A stretch of DNA of 35,497 nt from a virus: positions 1-35,497 of the IMG/VR virus record IMGVR_UViG_3300000271_000004; one strand, written 5' to 3'. A model generated the notes under the pieces. It saw only the letters and a list, made by a program, of their open reading frames with translations, did not search any database and was not told where the DNA came from. This document shows, in pieces, positions 5,977-35,497 of the stretch. Position numbers and translations under genes: made by a program. Within the stretch, counting starts at the first letter, position 1. Each line of letters starts with the position of its first letter.

Positions 5977-6371
5977 TGGCGGGTGGTAATCAATATAACG
6001 AAAAATGGACTTTAGAAGAGTGTGAGAAATTCATGTTAGAAGCAGTAGAAATATCACTTAAAGACAACATGGATTTTATTGGTGAAGTAGCAAAACAACA
6101 TGGTACATATCGCGACGTTTACGATTATATAGTAGATAAATTTCCAGAGTTAAAAAGGCTAAAAGCACAAATAAAAAACAACTGCGAAACCAATTGCTTT
6201 TCGAACGGTAAAAACCAAAATATAGTTCCATCAATGGCTATTATGAATCTTAAATCTAATCATGGTTGGACTGATAGATTAGACCAAACAACAAAAGGTA
6301 ATGAAATCAATCAAACACCACTATCTCAAGATGAACTAAACCGCGTTAAAGATTCGTTAGATGACTTATGA
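5976..6371 (+). CDS. terS: Terminase small subunit
   Basis: Position directly upstream of, and ATGA-coupled to, the large terminase. NQYNEKWTLEE N-terminus and MNLKSNHGWTD motif are typical of small terminases. Confidence 0.65.
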   Translation: MAGGNQYNEKWTLEECEKFMLEAVEISLKDNMDFIGEVAKQHGTYRDVYDYIVDKFPELKRLKAQIKNNCETNCFSNGKNQNIVPSMAIMNLKSNHGWTDRLDQTTKGNEINQTPLSQDELNRVKDSLDDL

Positions 6372-7804
6372 CCGATTACAACAATTTAACACGAAATCAA
6401 TTAGCCTATGCAAGGGTTAAATGCGATGAATCACTATTGTTTTTTACTCGCTTTTGGTTTCGTGTACTTAAAAATCAAAAGTTTGTTACCAATTGGCATC
6501 ATGAAGAGATTTGCTTTGAGTTAGATAACATTGAGAATTACCGCCTTGAATTATTAAACATCAACATTCCACCAAGATTTTCAAAAACAGAGATAGCAGC
6601 GGTTAATTTCATCGCTCGCGGTGTTGGTATGAATCCATACTCTAATTGGCTTTATATTACAGCATCTGATGAATTACGCTCACAAGTATCTGTATCTATT
6701 CGCGATATTGTTACACACCCATACTTTCATATTATGTATGGTGTTGAATTAAAGCCAGACCAAAATAGTAAGAACCTTTGGCGAACTACCCAAGGTGGAG
6801 GATTAAAAACAGCTACTATATTCGGTCAAATTACAGGATTCGGAGCAGGTCAATTGAATGATGAATTAATAGATGAAATGCGAATTTTTGAGGGTGCCAT
6901 TATATTAGATGACTTAAATAAAACAGACGATTCACAGGAAGAAAACGCGATAAACGAAAAGGTATCAAGAACTGTTTTTAATACTGTTTTAAGCCGTAAA
7001 AACTCACAAGATACACCAATTATAAACATACAACAAAGAGCGGGTGTAACAGATGTTACAGCGCAATTTATGGAACACTATGGTGAAAGTGATAAGGCAA
7101 AATTTATGGTTTATCCTATTGTTTCAAATGATGGTGTTCCACTTTGGGAGTACAAATTCAATTTAGATTCAATCAATGAACTAAAAACAAGCCCTAAAAC
7201 AGCGCACGTATTCGAAACGCAGTATATGCAGAACGCTACGAAACGTGAGGGTTTGATATACCAAAAAGAAGATTTAAACCATTGGGAAACGTTACCAGAG
7301 AAATTCGAATCTATCTATTCGTTTACAGATATTGCAGATACTGGGGAAGATAAACATAATACTATTTCAGCTGGATTAATTGGTAAAAAATGGTACTTAA
7401 TACCTAAGATGGTATTTACAAAAGAAGGAACTGAAATAAACACGCTTTTAACAGCAGAACATCTAAATGAGTTTTTACCTAAAGTAGCAATGATTGAAAC
7501 GAATATGGGTGGTTCAATGTATGTTCAATTATTAAAGCCATTGGTAAATGGTTCGGTTACTATTTACGGCATAAAGAATACAAGCAATAAGATAACGAGA
7601 ATGATAGGAAGCAAAAAGTTTATAATGGATAACTTCCTTTTGCCACCAATTGAACTAATGAAAAATGACCCTATTTTATGGTCATGGTATTCCGAACTAT
7701 TCAAAGTGACTAAAGACGGTAAATATAAACACGACGATGCGTTAGACACGTTAACAGGACTTTCAGAAGCAGTTTATAGCCATTTTAATCACTTATATCA
7801 ATAA
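6368..7804 (+). CDS. terL: Terminase large subunit
   Basis: 478 aa with a PPRFSKTE P-loop-like segment, an ILDDLNK Walker-B-like segment and a C-terminal KHDDALDTL nuclease motif. Confidence 0.85.
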   Translation: MTDYNNLTRNQLAYARVKCDESLLFFTRFWFRVLKNQKFVTNWHHEEICFELDNIENYRLELLNINIPPRFSKTEIAAVNFIARGVGMNPYSNWLYITASDELRSQVSVSIRDIVTHPYFHIMYGVELKPDQNSKNLWRTTQGGGLKTATIFGQITGFGAGQLNDELIDEMRIFEGAIILDDLNKTDDSQEENAINEKVSRTVFNTVLSRKNSQDTPIINIQQRAGVTDVTAQFMEHYGESDKAKFMVYPIVSNDGVPLWEYKFNLDSINELKTSPKTAHVFETQYMQNATKREGLIYQKEDLNHWETLPEKFESIYSFTDIADTGEDKHNTISAGLIGKKWYLIPKMVFTKEGTEINTLLTAEHLNEFLPKVAMIETNMGGSMYVQLLKPLVNGSVTIYGIKNTSNKITRMIGSKKFIMDNFLLPPIELMKNDPILWSWYSELFKVTKDGKYKHDDALDTLTGLSEAVYSHFNHLYQ

Positions 7805-9021
7805 GTTTCCATGACTAATCGTTCAGCATCTTTTGCGCTATATCCAGCGTCAATATACGTTTTAATTGCGCTTGCTTTCTTTTCAGCTATTTCAACATCG
7901 GTGGTAGAATCAGATTGTAAAGCGCTAATGTGGTCATAACTAATAACCAATTTATGACCATCTTTTAAAAATAATCCATTGGTCATATTATTACAGAAAT
8001 CTTCTGCGAATGGCTGTATTCCATCTTGATAAGCCATTTTTAAACCTTCTTTTAAGTTTGCTTGAACCTTTGACTTTTCCTTACTAAAAATGTTGTCATT
8101 CAAATTGATGGCATCTATTAAACGCTTCATACCTTCTGAAATAGTTTCGAAAGTCATAAAATCTTTAACGGGTAACGTAGTTGAATTCCACTTTACGTCA
8201 CCATTAACCATCTTAATTGACGATTGACCATTAAATATTCCGTATTCTTCTATATCTTGTTTTGCAAGTGCTATTCTATCCGATTCACTCATAGCTAAAG
8301 AATTACCCATACTATCCTTAGATTGGGATGAATAGAAGCCTAAAGCCCCTTTTTTAGTGTACAAAACGTTTACTAAGCCGTGTGCAGCACGAATGTTTGA
8401 AATAGTCATGTGAAGGGATTCTAACACTGAACGTCCGATGACAGGATTCATTGGGTCAACTCTTCTATGGTGTATCAATTCACTTGCTAACCATTCTTTT
8501 CTATCGTTATTTGTACGGTTATCAATATAGTATCGATTTATAATACCATCAATATCCATTTGCTCAAACATTTTACCTGTTAATTCAACTTTAACTTCAT
8601 TTGGTGGTAAATTCCAAAGTACAGTAGGTAAATCACTTAGTTGGCTTCCTTTTAATGGATATGTTATTCTATTGCCAAAAATAAGGTAATGTAAAGCGGA
8701 TTGAATCATAAAAGATTTACCATCTAATAAAGGGTTTGGATTTAAAAGTAATTTAACCAATTCGGATTTTTCTACAATATTTCCATCTTTGTCTAATTCT
8801 TGATAGATACCATTTGAAAACATTGAAGCGAACCTATTAAAAACAATATTTATCTCTCCTGTAGTATCATACAATTCCGCTTCATTCCCTTGTACAACTT
8901 CGAATTGTGCCTTTTCAGAACCTAATCCAAATAACTGACGAAACCAATTAGCGTTAGTTCTAACGAATCTATCATTTCCGCGATTCCAGTTAATTCCGAG
9001 TTTTCCAAGTTGAATATTCAT
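7798..9021 (-). CDS. Portal protein (HK97-family type)
   Basis: 407 aa with LLLNPNPLLDGKSFMIQSALHYLIFGNRITYP and ELIHHRRVDPMNPVIGRSVLESL, which are portal-like motifs. It is the only convincing minus-strand gene. Confidence 0.85.
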   Translation of the reverse strand: MNIQLGKLGINWNRGNDRFVRTNANWFRQLFGLGSEKAQFEVVQGNEAELYDTTGEINIVFNRFASMFSNGIYQELDKDGNIVEKSELVKLLLNPNPLLDGKSFMIQSALHYLIFGNRITYPLKGSQLSDLPTVLWNLPPNEVKVELTGKMFEQMDIDGIINRYYIDNRTNNDRKEWLASELIHHRRVDPMNPVIGRSVLESLHMTISNIRAAHGLVNVLYTKKGALGFYSSQSKDSMGNSLAMSESDRIALAKQDIEEYGIFNGQSSIKMVNGDVKWNSTTLPVKDFMTFETISEGMKRLIDAINLNDNIFSKEKSKVQANLKEGLKMAYQDGIQPFAEDFCNNMTNGLFLKDGHKLVISYDHISALQSDSTTDVEIAEKKASAIKTYIDAGYSAKDAERLVMETY

Positions 9022-9042
9022 AGCTTTTATTTATATTTACAT

Positions 9043-9069
9043 CAAATGTATTGATTTTAATTATATTTG
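9043..9069. promoter_or_regulatory. Divergent -7-type boxes (TAcaTTTG on the minus strand at 9043-9050; TAtaTTTG on the plus strand at 9062-9069)
   Basis: Both match the Bacteroidota TAnnTTTG -7 consensus and lie in the 151-nt gap between the portal and protease starts. Confidence 0.4.
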
Positions 9070-9172
9070 TGTATGGAAAACGAAAAAGAACGCGAGAAAA
9101 TTGATATTAAAACTATCAAAAATGACCGTGAAAAGGTTGTTAAAGGTGATAAAATCGTGAAAAAATAAAGTT

Positions 9173-9997: not shown

Positions 9998-11254
9998 ATG
10001 TTTGTAGAAAAAACAATTGAAGAATTCGAAGCATTGACGGCTAAAGAACAGCAAGAATATGTTATCGCAAAGCGTACGCATGAAGCAGAAGCGCGTAAAC
10101 AAGAAATTGCTGATGCAATCGCAGAAGCGCAAAAAAATAACGCAAGCAAAGAAGAAATTGAAGCGTTACAAGCTAAGTCTGAAAAGATTATCAAAGAATT
10201 GGAATTATACGGTATGCGATTAAAAGCGATATTAGAAGTTCCAACAACTGATAAAGGTAGTTCAGTAAGTCTTGAAACAGCTTTGAAAGAAGCATTTGAA
10301 GCAAAAGCAGATGAGTTTAAAAAACTTGCTGATGGTGATATTTCAGCAGTTAAAGCAGTAGTAAATATTACAGATGCTACAACTATTGACGCGGCTGGTT
10401 CGGCTTCTCAATACTCATTAACAACTAACACAGGTATTATTTCTAAGATTCGTTCAAGAATCATGAAGTACTTGGGTAATGTTTCAGTTGGTCGTATGAC
10501 AGGAAACCGCGTTATGTGGATGGAAGAGTTGGACGAACAAGGAACACCAATCTTTATTGCAGAAGCAGCGACTAAAACAAAGGTTTCTGTTCGTTACGAA
10601 GAGCGCGAAAAGAAATCGAAGAAAATTGGTATTCACTCCAAAATTTCAACGGAGTTTTTGCGTAATTTGCCACAGTTGGTAAACTATGTACGTATGAACT
10701 TAGTTAAACGTGTTGACATTGTTACAGAAGACCAATTGTTTAATGGTGACGATACAGGTAATAACTTAGCTGGTTTAACAGAATACGCAACACCATTTAC
10801 GGGTGGCTCATTAAATGGAACACTTACAACACCTTCAACGGCTGATGTATTCCGTGCGATTGCTTTACAAGTAGAAGAAGCATTTGGTATTGCTACAGCT
10901 ATCTTTGTTCGTCCAAGCGTACTTGCTTCAATGGACGTTGAAAAGTCTGTTGATGGTGTTTATTTGTTACCGCCTTTCCGTGCAGCAAATGGAAACATGG
11001 TGGCTGGAATGGAATTAATTTCTTCAAATGGTTTACCAACTGGAGTTGATTTTATAGGTGGTGATTTATCGGTTGTAAACGTTGCTTTCGCTGACCAAAT
11101 GACAGTTGAAATTAATCGTTCTGGTGACGACATGATTAACAACCTACGTACCGTATTAGTTGAACAAGAATTGGTTCAGTATGTATCAGCTAACGATACA
11201 CAAGTATTAGTTCAAGGAAGCATCGCTACGGCTATCACAGCGTTAACAGTTTAA
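9998..11254 (+). CDS. Major capsid protein (HK97 fold) with an N-terminal coiled-coil delta domain
   Basis: 418 aa with an E/K/A-rich first ~100 aa followed by a capsid-like core, in the canonical position after the protease. Confidence 0.85.
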   Translation: MFVEKTIEEFEALTAKEQQEYVIAKRTHEAEARKQEIADAIAEAQKNNASKEEIEALQAKSEKIIKELELYGMRLKAILEVPTTDKGSSVSLETALKEAFEAKADEFKKLADGDISAVKAVVNITDATTIDAAGSASQYSLTTNTGIISKIRSRIMKYLGNVSVGRMTGNRVMWMEELDEQGTPIFIAEAATKTKVSVRYEEREKKSKKIGIHSKISTEFLRNLPQLVNYVRMNLVKRVDIVTEDQLFNGDDTGNNLAGLTEYATPFTGGSLNGTLTTPSTADVFRAIALQVEEAFGIATAIFVRPSVLASMDVEKSVDGVYLLPPFRAANGNMVAGMELISSNGLPTGVDFIGGDLSVVNVAFADQMTVEINRSGDDMINNLRTVLVEQELVQYVSANDTQVLVQGSIATAITALTV

Positions 11255-12663: not shown

Positions 12664-13665
12664 ATGGTAACAACACAAGGATGTTGTGCAGAAGCACTTC
12701 ATAGCGTAGGACAGGCTTGTTCATTAGCGCCTAACGCGTTCACTAACTTTTTCGTATTTTCAAGATACCGAAACGGTGTAAGAGCATGGATTCCATCAAA
12801 TACAGCACCACTTGCTGGATTGAGTATTGGTGAAGAAATCCAAGAAATGGTAAATCAAACATCGAATATTCACAATTCGTTATACCCGATTCCTAAGCCT
12901 ACACAAATCATGTTCACGCCAAGCGACTACACAACAAGTGCAGACCCGATTGGATTCGAACAAGTTAATGGTGGTGGAAATATCCAAATGGCTACAATTA
13001 CTTGGACGGGAGATTTAGCAACACCATTGTTGGAGCGTGATTTGAATAAAATGTTTACTGAGTGTGGTGACCGTGATATTGTTTTCGGTGACGATTTCGG
13101 TGCATTGGTAGGTATTAAAAAGGTTGGTTACGACTTAGGATTATTTGGGTTTCAAGTAGTGCGTTCTACAGTTCGTATTAAATTTGACCCAGCTGTTAAT
13201 GGTTCAAGTGTACGTACTTTGACTTTAATGTTCCAAGTATTAAAAGAGCCTAAAAACTCAACGTACATGGCTGTTATTTCATCAAACGTACTTGGTTACG
13301 ATTCAGACGATTTAAAACCGTTACGTTACTTTACAGGGCTTTGTGAAGCTATTACAACTACAGAGTTAAGTTTTCAAATGTCTGGCGATTCGGCTGATGC
13401 GTCAAAACGTTTGTATTTGGTAGGATTTACGGGTGCAACACCACAAGTTTTGCAATTGGAAAATGTTACAGCCAATACATTCACTGCAATTTCATCTGGT
13501 GACATTGTAGAAAACTTCGTTCCAGACGACCAAGTGACAAATACCAATGGTACAAGCTACACCGTTACAATTACAGCTGCTACAACAGGCGATTTAATTC
13601 GTTTAGTTGCAACAGGTATAGGTGGATATGAAAAGATTGTATCTAACACGGTTGAAGCGTTATAA
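12664..13665 (+). CDS. Candidate major tail protein with a C-terminal Ig-like segment
   Basis: 333 aa and the last large gene before the tail-assembly block. The C-terminal T/V-rich beta-like ~90 aa supports the call, which is mostly positional. Confidence 0.5.
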   Translation: MVTTQGCCAEALHSVGQACSLAPNAFTNFFVFSRYRNGVRAWIPSNTAPLAGLSIGEEIQEMVNQTSNIHNSLYPIPKPTQIMFTPSDYTTSADPIGFEQVNGGGNIQMATITWTGDLATPLLERDLNKMFTECGDRDIVFGDDFGALVGIKKVGYDLGLFGFQVVRSTVRIKFDPAVNGSSVRTLTLMFQVLKEPKNSTYMAVISSNVLGYDSDDLKPLRYFTGLCEAITTTELSFQMSGDSADASKRLYLVGFTGATPQVLQLENVTANTFTAISSGDIVENFVPDDQVTNTNGTSYTVTITAATTGDLIRLVATGIGGYEKIVSNTVEAL

Positions 13666-13880
13666 TGAGCGTTATCGTAGTAGATGGATTTACATTCAAT
13701 GCTGAATACTTTAAAAAGATTTCAGAGGTTGATGCGGTTAAACGGTTAAGTCACGTTTACCAATATTCAACGATTATGAAGGCTTGGAAAGTAGCAAATG
13801 GAAAATCTATTCCGAATACGAAGAAAAGTAGTAAATCGGAAAAGGAAAAACCAATTGAGGAAACTCCAATTGTAGATTAA
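13665..13880 (+). CDS. Hypothetical protein with a lysine-rich tail
   Basis: 71-aa ORF with a TAATG overlap to the previous gene. Confidence 0.55.
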   Translation: MSVIVVDGFTFNAEYFKKISEVDAVKRLSHVYQYSTIMKAWKVANGKSIPNTKKSSKSEKEKPIEETPIVD

Positions 13881-13886
13881 AAATAG

Positions 13887-13918
13887 AAAGGCTTGCAGAA
13901 ATGTGAGCCTTTTTTTTG
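13887..13918 (+). terminator. Rho-independent terminator with a GAAA tetraloop
   Basis: AAAGGCTTGCA-GAAA-TGTGAGCCTTT stem followed by a T8 run. Confidence 0.7.
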
Positions 13919-13947
13919 TTTTGTATTTAATTTTATTCTTATATTTG
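13915..13947 (+). promoter_or_regulatory. Bacteroidota-type promoter candidate (TTTG-N21-TAtaTTTG)
   Basis: TTTG at 13915-18 and TATATTTG at 13940-47. Confidence 0.5.
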
Positions 13948-14375
13948 ACCTATCCAATAATGAATTGAGACGCATTAAGGAAAGATATTCAAGACCGTTT
14001 TTAGGTTACATACACAAAATATACCCTCAAGTTCGTCTCAAACTCTATTTGCTTGGGGGTTGTGTTGTTTAAAAGTGAACATAACGAATCACACCATTAA
14101 AACGGTTCAATCAAAAACACTTGTAACTTAAAATGCTTATTCGATAAATAAAACCCCGCAATGTTTAAGGTTAACAACGGGTACTGCAAGCCGAAAGGTA
14201 AAAGAATAAGTAAGGTAAATATCCCAAGTTTAAACTGAATACATAAGAAAGGGACGTAGTGCGAAGTGTTTAAGGTTGCATTGATTGTTAAAAGGTGTAT
14301 TTAACATGAAGTATTACAAGTTTGATTACTTGCAGTATAGAACCTTGGTGTATCAAATAGTTAAAAATTAAAATT
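13948..14375 (+). other. ORF-free transcribed-looking region (candidate non-coding RNA or leader)
   Basis: There is no ORF of 60 aa or more on either strand. It contains a 9-bp hairpin at 14023-14060, the 11-mer TGTTTAAGGTT twice (14162, 14267), and a 9-bp long-range complement (14182-90 with 14329-37). Confidence 0.35.
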
Positions 14376-14540
14376 ATGGAAGTTATTATTGGTTTGAGTA
14401 TTTGTGTATTATTTGGATTGTTATTTTTTTATATGACTTATACCATATTTAATATTATGAACGAATTAAACGAAAAAAGAATACAAGATATGAAGGATTC
14501 AAAAAATACTATTGATAGATTCAAAATGAAAAAAGAATAA
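14376..14540 (+). CDS. 54-aa single-TM micro-protein, absent from the ORF track
   Basis: MEVIIGLSICVLFGLLFFYMTYTIFNIMNELNEKRIQDMKDSKNTIDRFKMKKE has a hydrophobic N-terminus and a charged C-terminus. Confidence 0.45.
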   Translation: MEVIIGLSICVLFGLLFFYMTYTIFNIMNELNEKRIQDMKDSKNTIDRFKMKKE

Positions 14541-14583
14541 TTTGGTTTAAAATAAAACGTATATTTGCTTAAATGTTTATTGG

Positions 14584-14611
14584 AAAGCGGGGTGAAAACT
14601 TCGCTTTTTTT
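14584..14611 (+). terminator. Rho-independent terminator/attenuator hairpin
   Basis: AAAGCGG...TCGCTTT stem followed by a T-run. A TAtaTTTG box lies just upstream at 14560-67. Confidence 0.6.
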
Positions 14612-14621
14612 GTTTTGTACT

Positions 14622-15089
14622 ATGTCGTATTTGGATTTCACAAGCATAACGGATTTAATAAGTAGAGGTCTTTCAATTACAGAAAGTAATGCTTGGACTT
14701 ATTCTATATCCAAAAGTGAAATACAACGCGAAATAATACGATTGAACCAAGAACAATTATATGAAGATGGGATTGATTCAAAGAATGGTAGTTTAGGTGT
14801 TTATCGTCCTTTTACTATTGAAAGAAAGAAAAGCAAAGGCGTTGGTAAAGGTAGGCGAAATGACCATGTTACACTTTATGACCAAGGTGATTTTTACGCT
14901 TCTATGAAAGTAACATACGATTCAGACTCATTTGAAGTAACCGCTGACGATTCAAGCAAATATGATAGACCATTATTTGAGATTTACGGTGAAGATGTTG
15001 TGGGATTAACGCCATTTAATTTGGAACGAATAAGAAACTTTATAGTTAAATATTATGCAGAATACATTGATAAAAAACTATTTTACTGA
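14622..15089 (+). CDS. Tail-module protein (candidate assembly chaperone by position)
   Basis: ATG at 14622 (MSYLDF) is preferred because the track's N-terminus spans the terminator. 155 aa, two genes upstream of the tape measure. Confidence 0.65.
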   Translation: MSYLDFTSITDLISRGLSITESNAWTYSISKSEIQREIIRLNQEQLYEDGIDSKNGSLGVYRPFTIERKKSKGVGKGRRNDHVTLYDQGDFYASMKVTYDSDSFEVTADDSSKYDRPLFEIYGEDVVGLTPFNLERIRNFIVKYYAEYIDKKLFY

Positions 15090-15576
15090 CATAGCAGAAC
15101 TCATGCTATTCAATTGGCAAAACTGCCAGGCTGGTAGAATCGAGTTTTTACGTAAAGGTGAAGAAAAGGAAGTTAAACAGTCATTTTTAAGCCGTTTAAT
15201 GAAACGTAAACAAGAAAAGGAATATACACGTGAAAATGACATTAAAGCGTGGGAAATGGTACAAAAAGACTTTGTAGATAGGTTGGGAATGCCAACACAT
15301 TCAAAAGACTTTGCAAAACTTCAAGAAAAGCATACTAAAGCAATTTACAAGTACTTAGGCGCAAATGATGACCACCCGCAGAAACGATTCTTTATGAATG
15401 ATGTTGTGTATTGGCAAAATGAGATTGAAAAGGCTTTAAAAGTTGACCCAAACACTCCAAAAAATACGATTGAACAAACATTGTTAACGCTTTCGAAGAT
15501 GGAAGGTAGGCAACTAACAATAAAAAATACAAGTGTTTTAGATTTTCACTTACTAATTAACCAAAAAACTAACTAA
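15055..15576 (+). CDS. Tail-module protein (second chaperone-position gene); start could be 15055 or 15103
   Basis: The ORF overlaps the previous gene by 35 nt in the +1 frame and lies directly upstream of the tape measure. Confidence 0.6.
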   Translation: MQNTLIKNYFTDIAELMLFNWQNCQAGRIEFLRKGEEKEVKQSFLSRLMKRKQEKEYTRENDIKAWEMVQKDFVDRLGMPTHSKDFAKLQEKHTKAIYKYLGANDDHPQKRFFMNDVVYWQNEIEKALKVDPNTPKNTIEQTLLTLSKMEGRQLTIKNTSVLDFHLLINQKTN

Positions 15577-32412: not shown

Positions 32413-32418
32413 ATTGAT

Positions 32419-32530
32419 TATATTTGTTGAACGGTTCGCTCTGACACTATAGAACTAAAAAAAATTAGTTACACCCTGTAATTGAAGTAAGAGGTCAGAG
32501 CCTTACAGATTTTACAGGGTTTTTTATTTT
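32419..32530 (+). ncRNA. Structured leader or small-RNA candidate ending in a terminator
   Basis: TAtaTTTG box at 32419-26. Stem A is 32438-45 with 32494-501, and stem B is 32474-81 with 32512-19 followed by a T-run. An alternative partner TTACAG lies at 32503-08. Confidence 0.4.
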
Positions 32531-32549
32531 ACTTAAATAACGGAATGTT

Positions 32550-33065
32550 ATGGATTTTTTAGAAAAAGATTTGGAAGAAATCATTTACAAATCAGATAAG
32601 CAAAAATTATGTGATGCTGGATTAAGTTTAATGTTTGACTTAAGGAGGCAAGTTAAAATTGGAAATTATGGAATTGCCGATTTAATACATTATAGAAGAC
32701 CTCATTTAAATCCTTATGATAATAAAATGTACAAAGGATTTATTGAGATTATCGAACTTAAAAACAAGAAAATTGGTGTTAGCACATTTTTTCAGGCTTT
32801 AAATTATTTACAAGGGATTAAGACTTATTTAAAGAAAAAAGGAATAGAAAATAATTACGATTATAGAATTACACTTATTGGAAGAGAATTAGATTTATCA
32901 TCATCTTTTTGTTTTTTAGGAGATGTTTTTCAGCCGTCTCATGATGAAAATTATTTACTTAGTCAGTCGTTTACTTCTGTTCATTTATACAAATATATTT
33001 ATTCTTTAAACGGAATAGAATTTGAAGAAATAGAAGATTATAACATATCAAATAAAGGATTTTAA
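32550..33065 (+). CDS. PD-(D/E)XK-fold nuclease candidate (NucS/DUF4263-like core)
   Basis: GIADLIHY...FIEIIELKNKKI...FFQALNYLQG fits a D-x(n)-E-x-K plus Q..Y pattern. GC is very low. Confidence 0.55.
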   Translation: MDFLEKDLEEIIYKSDKQKLCDAGLSLMFDLRRQVKIGNYGIADLIHYRRPHLNPYDNKMYKGFIEIIELKNKKIGVSTFFQALNYLQGIKTYLKKKGIENNYDYRITLIGRELDLSSSFCFLGDVFQPSHDENYLLSQSFTSVHLYKYIYSLNGIEFEEIEDYNISNKGF

Positions 33066-35224: not shown

Positions 35225-35497
35225 ATGAAAAAAGTACATTTAAGAGATGAAAATTACAATTGGAAATCATTTCAATATAATGATTTATCTGAATTAAAAT
35301 CTGAATTAGAGAATAGAAAAATTTCGATTGGTTACGGTGCTTCGATTGGTGACGGTGCTTCGATTGGTAACGATTGTTCGATTGGTGACCTTGCTTCGAT
35401 TGGTAACGATTGTTCGATTGGTGACCTTGCTTCGATTGGTAACGATTGTTCGATTGGTAACCGTGCTTGGATTGGTAACGATTGTTCGATTGGTAAC
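35225..35497 (+). CDS. Hexapeptide-repeat protein, N-terminal part (continues at 76..342 after removing the 75-nt overlap)
   Basis: From the ATG at 35225 there is a 33-aa leader, then SIGYGA SIGDGA SIGNDC SIGDLA SIGNDC SIGDLA SIGNDC SIGNRA WIGNDC SIGN..., with the frame open to the window end. Confidence 0.75.
   Translation, partial: MKKVHLRDENYNWKSFQYNDLSELKSELENRKISIGYGASIGDGASIGNDCSIGDLASIGNDCSIGDLASIGNDCSIGNRAWIGNDCSIGN
35324..35497 (+). repeat. Tandem 18-nt repeats, including 2.5 copies of a perfect 36-nt unit
   Basis: Units start at 35324, 35342, 35360, 35378, 35396, 35414, 35432, 35450, 35468 and 35486. Confidence 0.9.
35423..35497. repeat. Exact 75-nt duplicate of 1..75
   Basis: Base-by-base comparison shows no mismatch. 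Confidence 0.95.

Follow-up and report, generated by a model that had tools for sequence, protein, structure and literature searches.

A probable moron-type accessory cassette with a putative folded noncoding RNA at a tail-gene junction of a siphophage genome

The largest non-coding gap of the window, which is the whole 35,497-nt stretch of DNA analysed (IMG/VR record IMGVR_UViG_3300000271_000004), is best explained as a moron-type accessory cassette, with a new structured noncoding RNA as main cargo, in a recombination-prone slot, a reading to which we give a probability of roughly 0.55. This main cargo appears to be a folded RNA of ~410 nt, previously undescribed and with its own predicted promoter. 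The cassette would contain, in this order, an intrinsic terminator (T1), a Bacteroidota-type promoter, the ~410-nt RNA, a membrane-type ORF of 54 aa, present only in the window phage, a promoter-like box and a second terminator (T2). On its upstream side the slot would border on a gene of ~70 aa, which follows the gene of the presumed major tail protein, and on its downstream side on the tail-assembly genes.

The gap covers 741 nt (13881-14621) and the next largest gaps of the genome are of 304 and 204 nt, which bears out the coding-poor island described in an earlier note on this DNA; the features which that note had pointed out (T1, promoter, 54-aa ORF, second box, T2, a hairpin, two 11-mers and a 9-bp complement) were all found again in their places. 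Between 13881 and 14437 both strands lack ORFs of at least 60 aa, and the longest one there has 59 aa and a TTG start (13893-14072). The genome that hosts the island is a circular siphophage of ~35.4 kb. Terminase, portal and capsid genes are upstream of the island, which sits mid-operon among structural genes. The upstream flank contains, on the + strand, a gene encoding a 71-aa protein (13665-13880) after a gene encoding a 333-aa protein. Syntenic genes of 63-72 aa, counterparts of the 71-aa gene, are present in all relatives, and no family matches were found for the genes of this flank. The 333-aa protein is presumed to be the major tail protein solely from its position; its AlphaFold model has a pLDDT of 36.5 and PDB profile searches were uninformative as to its identity. 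The downstream flank starts with the ATG at 14622 of a gene encoding a 155-aa tail protein (14622-15089, + strand; phrog_6195 'tail protein', E 2.5e-21), followed by an overlapping ORF of 173 aa and a tape-measure-like gene of 983 aa, whose long orthologs in L004 and L060 show TMP_3 or PhageMin_Tail domains. ARAGORN detected no tRNA or tmRNA genes in the genome, and no long imperfect repeat of the island, of the kind of a DGR template, was found elsewhere in it.

Comparison with nine or more related phages shows, at the sequence level, that the island is accessory, an optional insert of some Flavobacteria-type phages. It is missing as a whole from at least eight relatives, in which the tail genes come directly after a single terminator, and all further relatives recovered through the 71-aa and 333-aa proteins are island-less. 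In L003/L018, L006, L007, L056, L057, L058 and L060 the flanking genes are only 48-100 nt apart, and the spacer contains only the T2 homologue. The slot of L004 contains T1, an ORF of 147 aa, the box and T2. The slot of L005, which is a distant relative of the window phage, contains T1, the promoter, the RNA, the box and T2, and the 54-aa ORF is precisely absent from it. T1 (13885-13918, + strand) shows a hairpin at 13885-13914 with a 13-bp stem and a GAAA loop, followed by a run of 8 U (dG -15.8 kcal/mol, z -4.8); this hairpin is identical in all three cargo-bearing phages (window, L004 and L005) and absent from the island-less relatives. T2 is a terminator or attenuator directly before the tail genes (14582-14616, + strand), with a hairpin at 14582-14609 and a U-run (dG -13.7, z -4.6). 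A hairpin with a T-run is found at its position in every relative examined and the stems covary; judged by this comparison, T2 is the ancestral terminator of the locus. T1 and T2 are two of only ~4 strong terminators on the + strand in 35 kb. An exact 15-mer follows both T1 and T2 in the window; it was considered as a target-site duplication and discarded because it is absent from L004 and L005, and thus is window-specific and no cassette-wide insertion scar.

The RNA block (13948-14355, + strand) was delimited by its conservation with L005. Over ~13940-14355 the two phages show 78-94% nucleotide identity (86% for the RNA overall): 78% in the 5' part, 94% (93.6%) in the core (14046-14220) and 90% in the 3' part, against 60-67% in the four flanking genes and ~55-68% in the spacers beside the block. 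The borders are sharp, at the -7 box of the promoter and at ~14355: identity per block is 17/25 from T1 to the promoter, 22-25/25 in the core and at most 14/25 past 14355. Window and L005 have no reading frame in common in the block, which contains stops of all three kinds, with at least two kinds in each of the six frames; indels between the two are of 1-2 nt and substitutions by codon phase are 14/23/11. A hidden gene with a recoded stop was rejected on these stops, indels and phase counts. Aligned in this way, the two copies show the boundaries, the noncoding nature and the selective conservation of the block, and the high identity could partly reflect recent cassette exchange. The conserved block does not end in a terminator, so that its RNA may be a domain of a transcript rather than a discrete gene. 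The suggestion of the earlier note that the region encodes one or more small RNAs stands as regards a phage-encoded RNA, in the form of one conserved, structured domain of ~410 nt with a predicted promoter and not of several small RNAs.

At least three predicted helices show compensatory change between the window and L005, the two independent copies compared. Helix H1 pairs 13965-13972 (UUGAGACG) with 14034-14041 (CGUCUCAA); in L005 it reads GUAGAACG/CGUUCUAC, with double changes at four of its eight pairs and no pair lost, and 500 column shuffles produced no helix with three or more double changes. Helix H2 pairs 14023-14032 with 14051-14060 (10 bp, dG -13.8, z -3.2) and contains two C/U changes opposite G, with pairing kept on the + strand only. 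The 3' arm of H1 is in the loop of H2, so that, from the coordinates, both would form an H-type pseudoknot with a 1-nt junction. One double compensatory change is found in helix 14162-65/14173-76, and G-U-compatible changes are found in H2, 14061-66/14078-83 and 14270-77/14341-48; read on the opposite strand they would give A-C mismatches, which points to a folded + strand RNA. The core contains an invariant 42-nt block (14176-14217) with a GAAA-capped hairpin (14190-14199), within a 9-bp helix (14134-42/14204-12). A model of 15 helices shows five double and five one-sided G-U-compatible changes against L005, with one broken cell when one mis-registered helix is left out of the count; slid controls gave 0-1 double changes, and in the shuffle control, weak with two rows, 21 of 500 reached the observed values. 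The single-sequence minimum free energy fold of the window keeps five pairs and breaks 12 in L005, and the fold z-score is -1.78 for the + strand and -0.35 for the - strand. Because there are two independent copies only, most helices never vary and the competing long-range pairings (14119-26/14314-21, 14182-89/14330-37 and 14270-77/14341-48) are left side by side. The RNA contains only one palindrome of 8 nt or more, AGUUUAAACU (14227-14236, + strand); at the aligned place L005 has a different perfect palindrome, AGUCCAUGGACU, which is likewise its only one, and as a hairpin the palindrome of the window is unstable (dG 0). The covariation for which the earlier note had looked to relatives is thus seen, within two copies, in the double changes of H1 and in the kept palindrome, but not in its 9-bp complement, TACTGCAAG (14182-90) with CTTGCAGTA (14329-37), which keeps 8/9 pairs in L005 with no informative variation. 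The 11-mer repeat (14162 and 14267), which it had listed as a feature, is not kept identical in L005 and is therefore probably due to chance.

The predicted promoter (13915-13947, + strand) is of the Bacteroidota sigma-A type (consensus from PMC2483708 and PMC7366714) and shows TTTG-N21-TATATTTG, with the -33 TTTG at 13915-18 and the -7 TATATTTG at 13940-47. The aligned place in L005 shows TTTG-N20-TATATTTG, and the spacer between both elements has diverged. The pattern alone is not enriched genome-wide (three found, 2.8 expected; for TAnnTTTG, 52 against 60), so that the weight of the promoter call comes from its conservation in L005 and from the similar boxes found in other intergenic regions, ahead of other genes of the window phage. 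The transcription start would be near 13952-13956. Use of the promoter, the ends of the transcript, its action in trans and its role are inferred, as follows. T1 would halt much of the upstream late transcription and so insulate the cassette, and the host primary sigma factor would initiate a rightward transcript near 13953, which would fold as a pseudoknotted RNA, cross the small ORF and stop at T2, with a predicted length of ~660 nt in the window and ~515 nt in L005. Read-through at T2 would supplement tail-gene transcription. The RNA most likely would be a trans-acting folded molecule that binds a protein or itself, rather than an antisense regulator, and may confer an optional benefit such as host takeover or counter-defence, as usual for morons. 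The best complementarity to a phage mRNA is between 14109-25 and 15528-44 (16/17 nt, E 0.18); this antisense target was rejected because the complementarity is not kept in L005 (four mismatches).

Copies of the RNA were found in the window, its Logan twin (L001/L002) and L005. No further copy turned up when 50,697 phage records were searched by blastn, IMG/VR was scanned for exact patterns taken from RNA blocks, 44 loci were searched by nhmmer and 300 kb of relatives were searched with a core covariance model. An IMG/VR pattern scan with the T1 hairpin recovered only the contig of L004 itself, and scans of JGI metagenomes and GTDB genomes gave six and five chance matches, negative by nhmmer and on follow-up, respectively. 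The Rfam search that the earlier note had proposed returned no family: Rfam 15 (4227 models) showed no match at the gathering threshold over the whole window, and permissive searches (E up to 10) with the islands of the window and L005 gave only weak terminator look-alikes and noise, far below threshold. Literature searches found no published description of the ~410-nt RNA.

Like the morons known from lambdoid and HK97-like phages (Juhala et al., 2000, as cited in PMC4104026), the island is inserted between genes that are adjacent in relatives (L003, L006, L007, L056, L057, L058 and L060) and has a variable cargo, which can be an RNA gene; it would share with them a promoter of its own, here predicted and conserved in L005, and flanking terminators, here T1 and T2, predicted by sequence. 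Deviant base composition, a further mark of morons, is not seen: the GC content of the RNA block is 0.336, close to the genome mean of 0.331, and that of the whole island (0.286) is lowered only by AT-rich spacers and the small ORF. Small RNA genes at a moron site downstream of pR' are found in EHEC prophages (PMC4104026). The island differs from them in its host phylum and promoter type, Bacteroidota, in its RNA, ~410 nt and predicted to be pseudoknotted instead of a 51-60-nt Hfq-bound anti-sRNA, and in its site, between tail genes instead of after a Q-dependent late promoter. The conserved brackets of the slot, T1 and box-T2 around different cargoes, also recall a type of cassette found in another phage group. 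In T4-type phages, PeSLs are promoter-stem-loop boundary cassettes that flank shuffled gene modules, and their conserved hairpin and promoter likewise bracket a swapped slot; the hairpins of the island are terminators with U-runs, unlike those of PeSLs, and T2 is ancestral to the locus.

A more far-reaching proposal, which we hold tentatively, is that the block is the first member of a new class of large phage RNAs with pseudoknots, comparable in spirit to ROOL and GOLLD. It would be a swappable module of Flavobacteriia siphophages that possibly self-associates through its palindrome, and its target would be the host and not phage gene expression, for example if it served as decoy or sponge for an RNA-binding or defence factor. 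ROOL RNAs have ~580 nt. Both are large ornate RNAs of phages and prophages (PMC12286853; PMC5737381), and many GOLLD members exceed 800 nt (PMC12286853). The RNA of the island shares with them its phage location, a length of several hundred nt, multiple pseudoknots, in its case predicted, an accessory distribution and the lack of a known protein partner or function, and its conserved palindrome could allow the self-association seen in them. It differs from them in that it shows no match to their Rfam models, is smaller (~410 nt), is not near tRNA genes, of which the genome has none, and is represented by two copies with no robust consensus.

A cis-acting role is rather unlikely. The RNA or the box-T2 unit would modify RNA polymerase or control read-through at T2, and the tail genes would be transcribed from the cassette promoter, as in the lambda pR'-6S RNA-tR' unit with Q, whose layout the earlier note had proposed, or as with the put RNAs of HK022. 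The likeness consists in a promoter and then a terminator ahead of late structural genes, with a folded RNA just downstream of the promoter. The RNA is always between the promoter and T2, directly upstream of the tail genes and with no intervening terminator; in the cargo-bearing phages two terminators stand one behind the other, which makes some compensation for tail-gene transcription plausible, and all three phages have a perfect TATATTTG box before T2 (14560-14567, + strand, in the window). However, at least eight relatives have the tail genes behind the T2 homologue alone, without the RNA, and L004 has a protein gene in its place. The box lacks a -33 element at the proper spacing and is degenerate in several relatives: it is TAAATTTG in L003 and TAATTTTA in L006, L007, L057 and L058, where it overlaps the stop codon of the upstream gene. 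The lambda-Q layout is not supported for an island that is mid-operon instead of heading the late operon, that most relatives do without, that ends in an ancestral T2 and that has no Q-like antiterminator or other regulator gene adjacent. The RNA is also ~6 times longer than put, and to our knowledge all antiterminator RNAs are far below 410 nt.

The block could also have no current function, as the remnant (decayed gene or old element) of a recently swapped cassette, which we regard as unlikely, a little more so than the cis-acting role. The near-identity of the T1 and T2 hairpins among cargo-bearing phages whose genes are ~65% identical suggests recent recombination at the slot, and only two copies were found anywhere. 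Against decay are the uneven divergence within the cassette, from spacers at 55-68% to a core at 94%, the four paired double substitutions in the single 8-bp helix H1, the exchange of one palindrome for another and the lack of any trace of a reading frame.

It is improbable that the transcript is the mRNA of a hok-like type I toxin, in which the 410-nt RNA would be a regulatory 5' leader and the 54-aa peptide (14376-14540, + strand) a membrane toxin or exclusion protein. The peptide shows one hydrophobic stretch, at its N-terminus, and then a charged tail; its ORF has no promoter of its own in the window and would be translated from the transcript of the RNA, and hok mRNAs typically have a long, folded leader and 5'-3' pairing. 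There is no co-conservation, since L005 retains the RNA at 86% identity and lacks the ORF. No TAnnTTTG box, the only promoter type scanned, is present on the - strand of 13881-14621 for an antisense RNA, and the ORF has no family match and no homologue among 1.84 billion representative proteins or in phage genomes. The ORF is an orphan, and would be an additional, optional cargo on the transcript of the RNA. A DNA-level site (pac/cos, replication origin, attachment site or inverted repeats co-varying with a binding protein), which the earlier note had raised for packaging or replication, is very improbable: the H1 repeats, which change in concert, might in principle serve as a pair of half-sites for a DNA-binding protein, but the arms are separated by 61 nt, the block is absent from close relatives and so is no essential cis site, its G-U-compatible changes fit a folded + strand RNA and would be mismatches in duplex-symmetric sites, and the ORFs tested yielded no integrase.

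Few structured RNAs larger than sRNAs are described in phages and almost nothing is known of them in Bacteroidota phages, whose hosts differ from the model systems in promoters and translation signals. The moron-type cassette offers a clean natural experiment, since a single tail-gene junction shows four states: empty, filled by a protein gene, carrying only the RNA, and carrying the RNA together with a small membrane ORF. Even with a non-functional RNA, the locus would be a record of a terminator duplication that created a landing pad in a structural operon. If the RNA is functional, it would add a class of RNA whose boundaries are defined and whose pseudoknot can be tested, and moron slots bounded by conserved terminators would trade RNA genes as well as protein genes.

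The island at 13881-14621, between the 71-aa gene and the 155-aa tail protein gene, is read here, with a probability of about 0.55, as accessory cargo of a slot bounded by terminators: an autonomous transcription unit that would yield a folded RNA acting in trans, with which a 54-aa ORF would travel as a separable second passenger. An exact 75-nt terminal direct repeat (1-75 and 35423-35497) indicates that the window is a circular assembly and a complete phage genome, of ~35.4 kb, and a near-identical contig of 35,333 nt is present in SRA run SRR845265. The window contains genes encoding the large terminase (6368-7804), the portal (7798-9021, minus strand), the major capsid protein (9998-11254) and three unassigned ORFs, the last two being the 333-aa and 71-aa genes; after the island come the 155-aa tail protein (14622-15089, phrog_6195), a 173-aa ORF (15055-15576) and a 983-aa tape-measure-like gene. 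Among described phages, the terminase is closest to that of Tenacibaculum phage JQ, and the tail protein to those of Flavobacterium, Croceibacter and Bacteroides phages. The hosts of these phages, Flavobacteriia and Bacteroides, fit the use, in the earlier note, of a promoter with the Bacteroidota consensus, -33 TTTG and -7 TAnnTTTG (PMC2483708, PMC7366714). The portal gene is the only large minus-strand gene in an otherwise rightward genome, an inversion also present in the related contigs L003 and L005, and the divergent spacer beside it (9022-9172) shows a TATATTTG box at 9062. The two ORFs downstream of the island overlap by 35 nt, and with respect to the first the second is read in frame +1. 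In siphophages a frameshifted chaperone pair is usual just before the tape-measure gene, and this overlapping pair occupies that position.

All the features listed in the earlier note were found where it had placed them: a terminator at the left end (T1, 13885-13918; dG -15.8 kcal/mol, z -4.8), a promoter TTTG-N21-TATATTTG (13915-13947), the 54-aa ORF (14376-14540), a second TATATTTG box (14560-67) and a terminator at the right end (T2, 14582-14616; dG -13.7, z -4.6), together with the smaller hairpin, the 11-mer repeat and the long-range complement. No ORF of at least 60 aa lies on either strand between 13881 and 14437. At 741 nt, this gap far exceeds every other in the genome (304 and 204 nt for the next two), and T1 and T2 are among about four strong plus-strand terminators genome-wide. 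Both T1 and T2 are followed by the same 15 nt, TTTTTTTGTTTTGTA, an exact direct repeat (13911-13925 and 14605-14619, 694 nt apart); since it is not common to the contigs L004 or L005, it looks like local homogenisation of duplicated terminator tails, not an insertion scar.

Relatives gathered via the 155-aa tail protein and the 333-aa protein comprise ~10 contigs with the same gene order. The island is absent in L003, whose tail protein is 80% identical to that of the window, and in L006, L007, L056, L057, L058 and L060, where 48-100 nt separate a ~65-aa gene from the tail gene and contain a single hairpin plus T-run, the T2 homologue. L004 (71%) shows T1, a 147-aa ORF with no family match, a TATATTTG box and T2; L005 (65%) likewise has T1, the box and T2, but with a promoter and an ORF-free block between T1 and the box, and no 54-aa ORF. 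In a further 27 more distant IMG/VR loci, no ORF-free gap above ~330 nt was found at this junction. All three cargo-bearing phages carry one and the same T1 hairpin, which no other relative has. Every relative has a T2-type hairpin plus T-run 5-12 nt ahead of its tail-gene start (e.g., L003 5960-5990, L006 3960-3992, L056 about 205-240), with stems that differ and stay complementary, so T2 would be an ancestral terminator or attenuator ahead of the tail-assembly genes, probably setting how much of the upstream tail proteins is made relative to the downstream ones. T1 with the sequence before it resembles T2 with the sequence before it, and in relatives without the island the latter sequence is where the upstream gene ends; such a likeness suggests an origin of the slot by duplication of a gene end plus terminator. 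In L004 (2290-2400), a TATGTTTG box overlaps the called start codon of the 147-aa ORF; its true start may be an ATG ~28 nt downstream, behind an A-rich leader, in which case this cargo has its own promoter too.

This distribution bears on a cis-leader or antitermination device, including the lambda Q-type layout of promoter, terminated leader and late genes proposed in the earlier note. Most relatives express the same tail genes with no island, L004 has a protein-coding ORF in the slot, the island has no regulator gene next to it, and across the family the second box is not kept as a promoter; this weakens the analogy and makes such a device unlikely.

The ORF-free block (~13948-14355) is better conserved than its surroundings: the window and L005 are 78% (13948-14045), 94% (14046-14220) and 90% (14221-14358) identical within it, versus 60-67% nucleotide identity in the four flanking genes and roughly 55-68% in the spacer from T1 to the -7 box and in all sequence past 14355. 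Conservation begins at the -7 box and ends abruptly near 14355. Several kinds of stop codon occur in every reading frame of the block, no ORF is common to the two copies, their indels are of 1, 2, 1, 2 and 1 nt, and the substitutions follow no clear codon phase. A helix, H1 (13965-72/14034-41), is UUGAGACG/CGUCUCAA in the window and GUAGAACG/CGUUCUAC in L005: four pairs differ at both positions, and every pair is kept. Column shuffles gave a helix with at least three double changes in 0/500. A 10-bp helix (14023-32/14051-60), whose loop contains the H1 3' arm with a 1-nt junction, shows two C/U changes opposite G with pairing kept, and both helices together would adopt an H-type pseudoknot geometry. 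The hairpin 14162-65/14173-76 shows one more double change, and the only palindrome of at least 8 nt in each RNA lies at the aligned place (AGUUUAAACU in the window, AGUCCAUGGACU in L005).

In a model of 15 helices, five pairs are changed on both sides, five on one side via G-U, and one cell is broken, not counting one helix registered one column off; sliding the partners by 1-3 columns gave 0-1 double changes and 33-46% pairing, and the shuffle control, run on two rows, is of little power. Of the two strands, the plus strand is favoured by the G-U-type changes and by fold z-scores of -1.78 (plus) and -0.35 (minus). The 9-bp complement of the earlier note (14182-89/14330-37) is present, but one end pair is lost in L005 and it competes with other invariant long-range helices, among them 14119-26/14314-21 and 14270-77/14341-48. 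The minimum-energy fold of the window is not supported by L005 (5 changed pairs kept, 12 broken), and two copies are too few to fix a 410-nt fold. The block is best described as a selectively conserved, folded plus-strand RNA, as predicted from sequence comparison; the small-RNA proposal of the earlier note holds in modified form, for one ~410-nt RNA domain and not for several small RNAs. A recent import without function, which would also give similar copies, is doubtful: the divergence inside one cassette is uneven, which favours selection over recent transfer alone, and compensatory changes are present. Close to the predicted 5' end of the RNA, at a distance of ~8-10 nt, lies a two-codon mini-ORF (ATG AAT TGA at 13961-13969 in the window, ATG AAG TAG at about 5487-5495 in L005); its in-frame stop is kept although this stretch, the H1 5' arm, changed at four positions, and this mini-ORF may be a start-stop element or a coincidence (with a chance of roughly 5-8%).

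The promoter pattern is no more frequent in the genome than expected by chance, and its evidential weight comes from L005: it lies directly 5' of the RNA block in both phages, with N21 in the window and N20 in L005, and the intervening spacer has diverged while the elements are kept. Similar TAnnTTTG boxes lie 20-40 nt upstream of several other genes of this phage. The TATATTTG box at 32419 is followed by a 123-nt ORF-free leader (region 32413-32549) before the gene at 32550, unusually long compared with those leaders. Since the conserved block has no terminator at its end, the transcript probably runs on to T2, in the window also carrying the 54-aa ORF, a candidate gene and an orphan with no homologue among 1.84 billion representative proteins. 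A hok-like toxin mRNA encoding this peptide is improbable, as L005 retains the RNA but lost the ORF. A DNA site is the least probable reading; the pac, cos or ori suggested in the earlier note is set aside because close relatives lack the block.

The RNA matches no Rfam family, tRNA or tmRNA; exact-pattern and profile searches, which reach close relatives only and covered parts of the relatives' genomes, found no further copies in INPHARED, IMG/VR, JGI metagenomes or GTDB genomes. Within the phage, neither a conserved antisense target nor a DGR-like repeat was found. Absent from relatives, with its own predicted promoter and terminators on both sides, the island has the layout of a moron, and RNA genes are known at moron sites of EHEC prophages (PMC4104026). 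The RNA is similar to GOLLD and ROOL, phage-borne RNAs of unknown function (PMC12286853), in its size and its predicted pseudoknotted character, but it does not match their models and is not associated with tRNA genes as they are. The locus would therefore represent a phage accessory cassette carrying a structured ncRNA outside any described family; the signal from the comparison is real, and the locus makes an attractive natural experiment.
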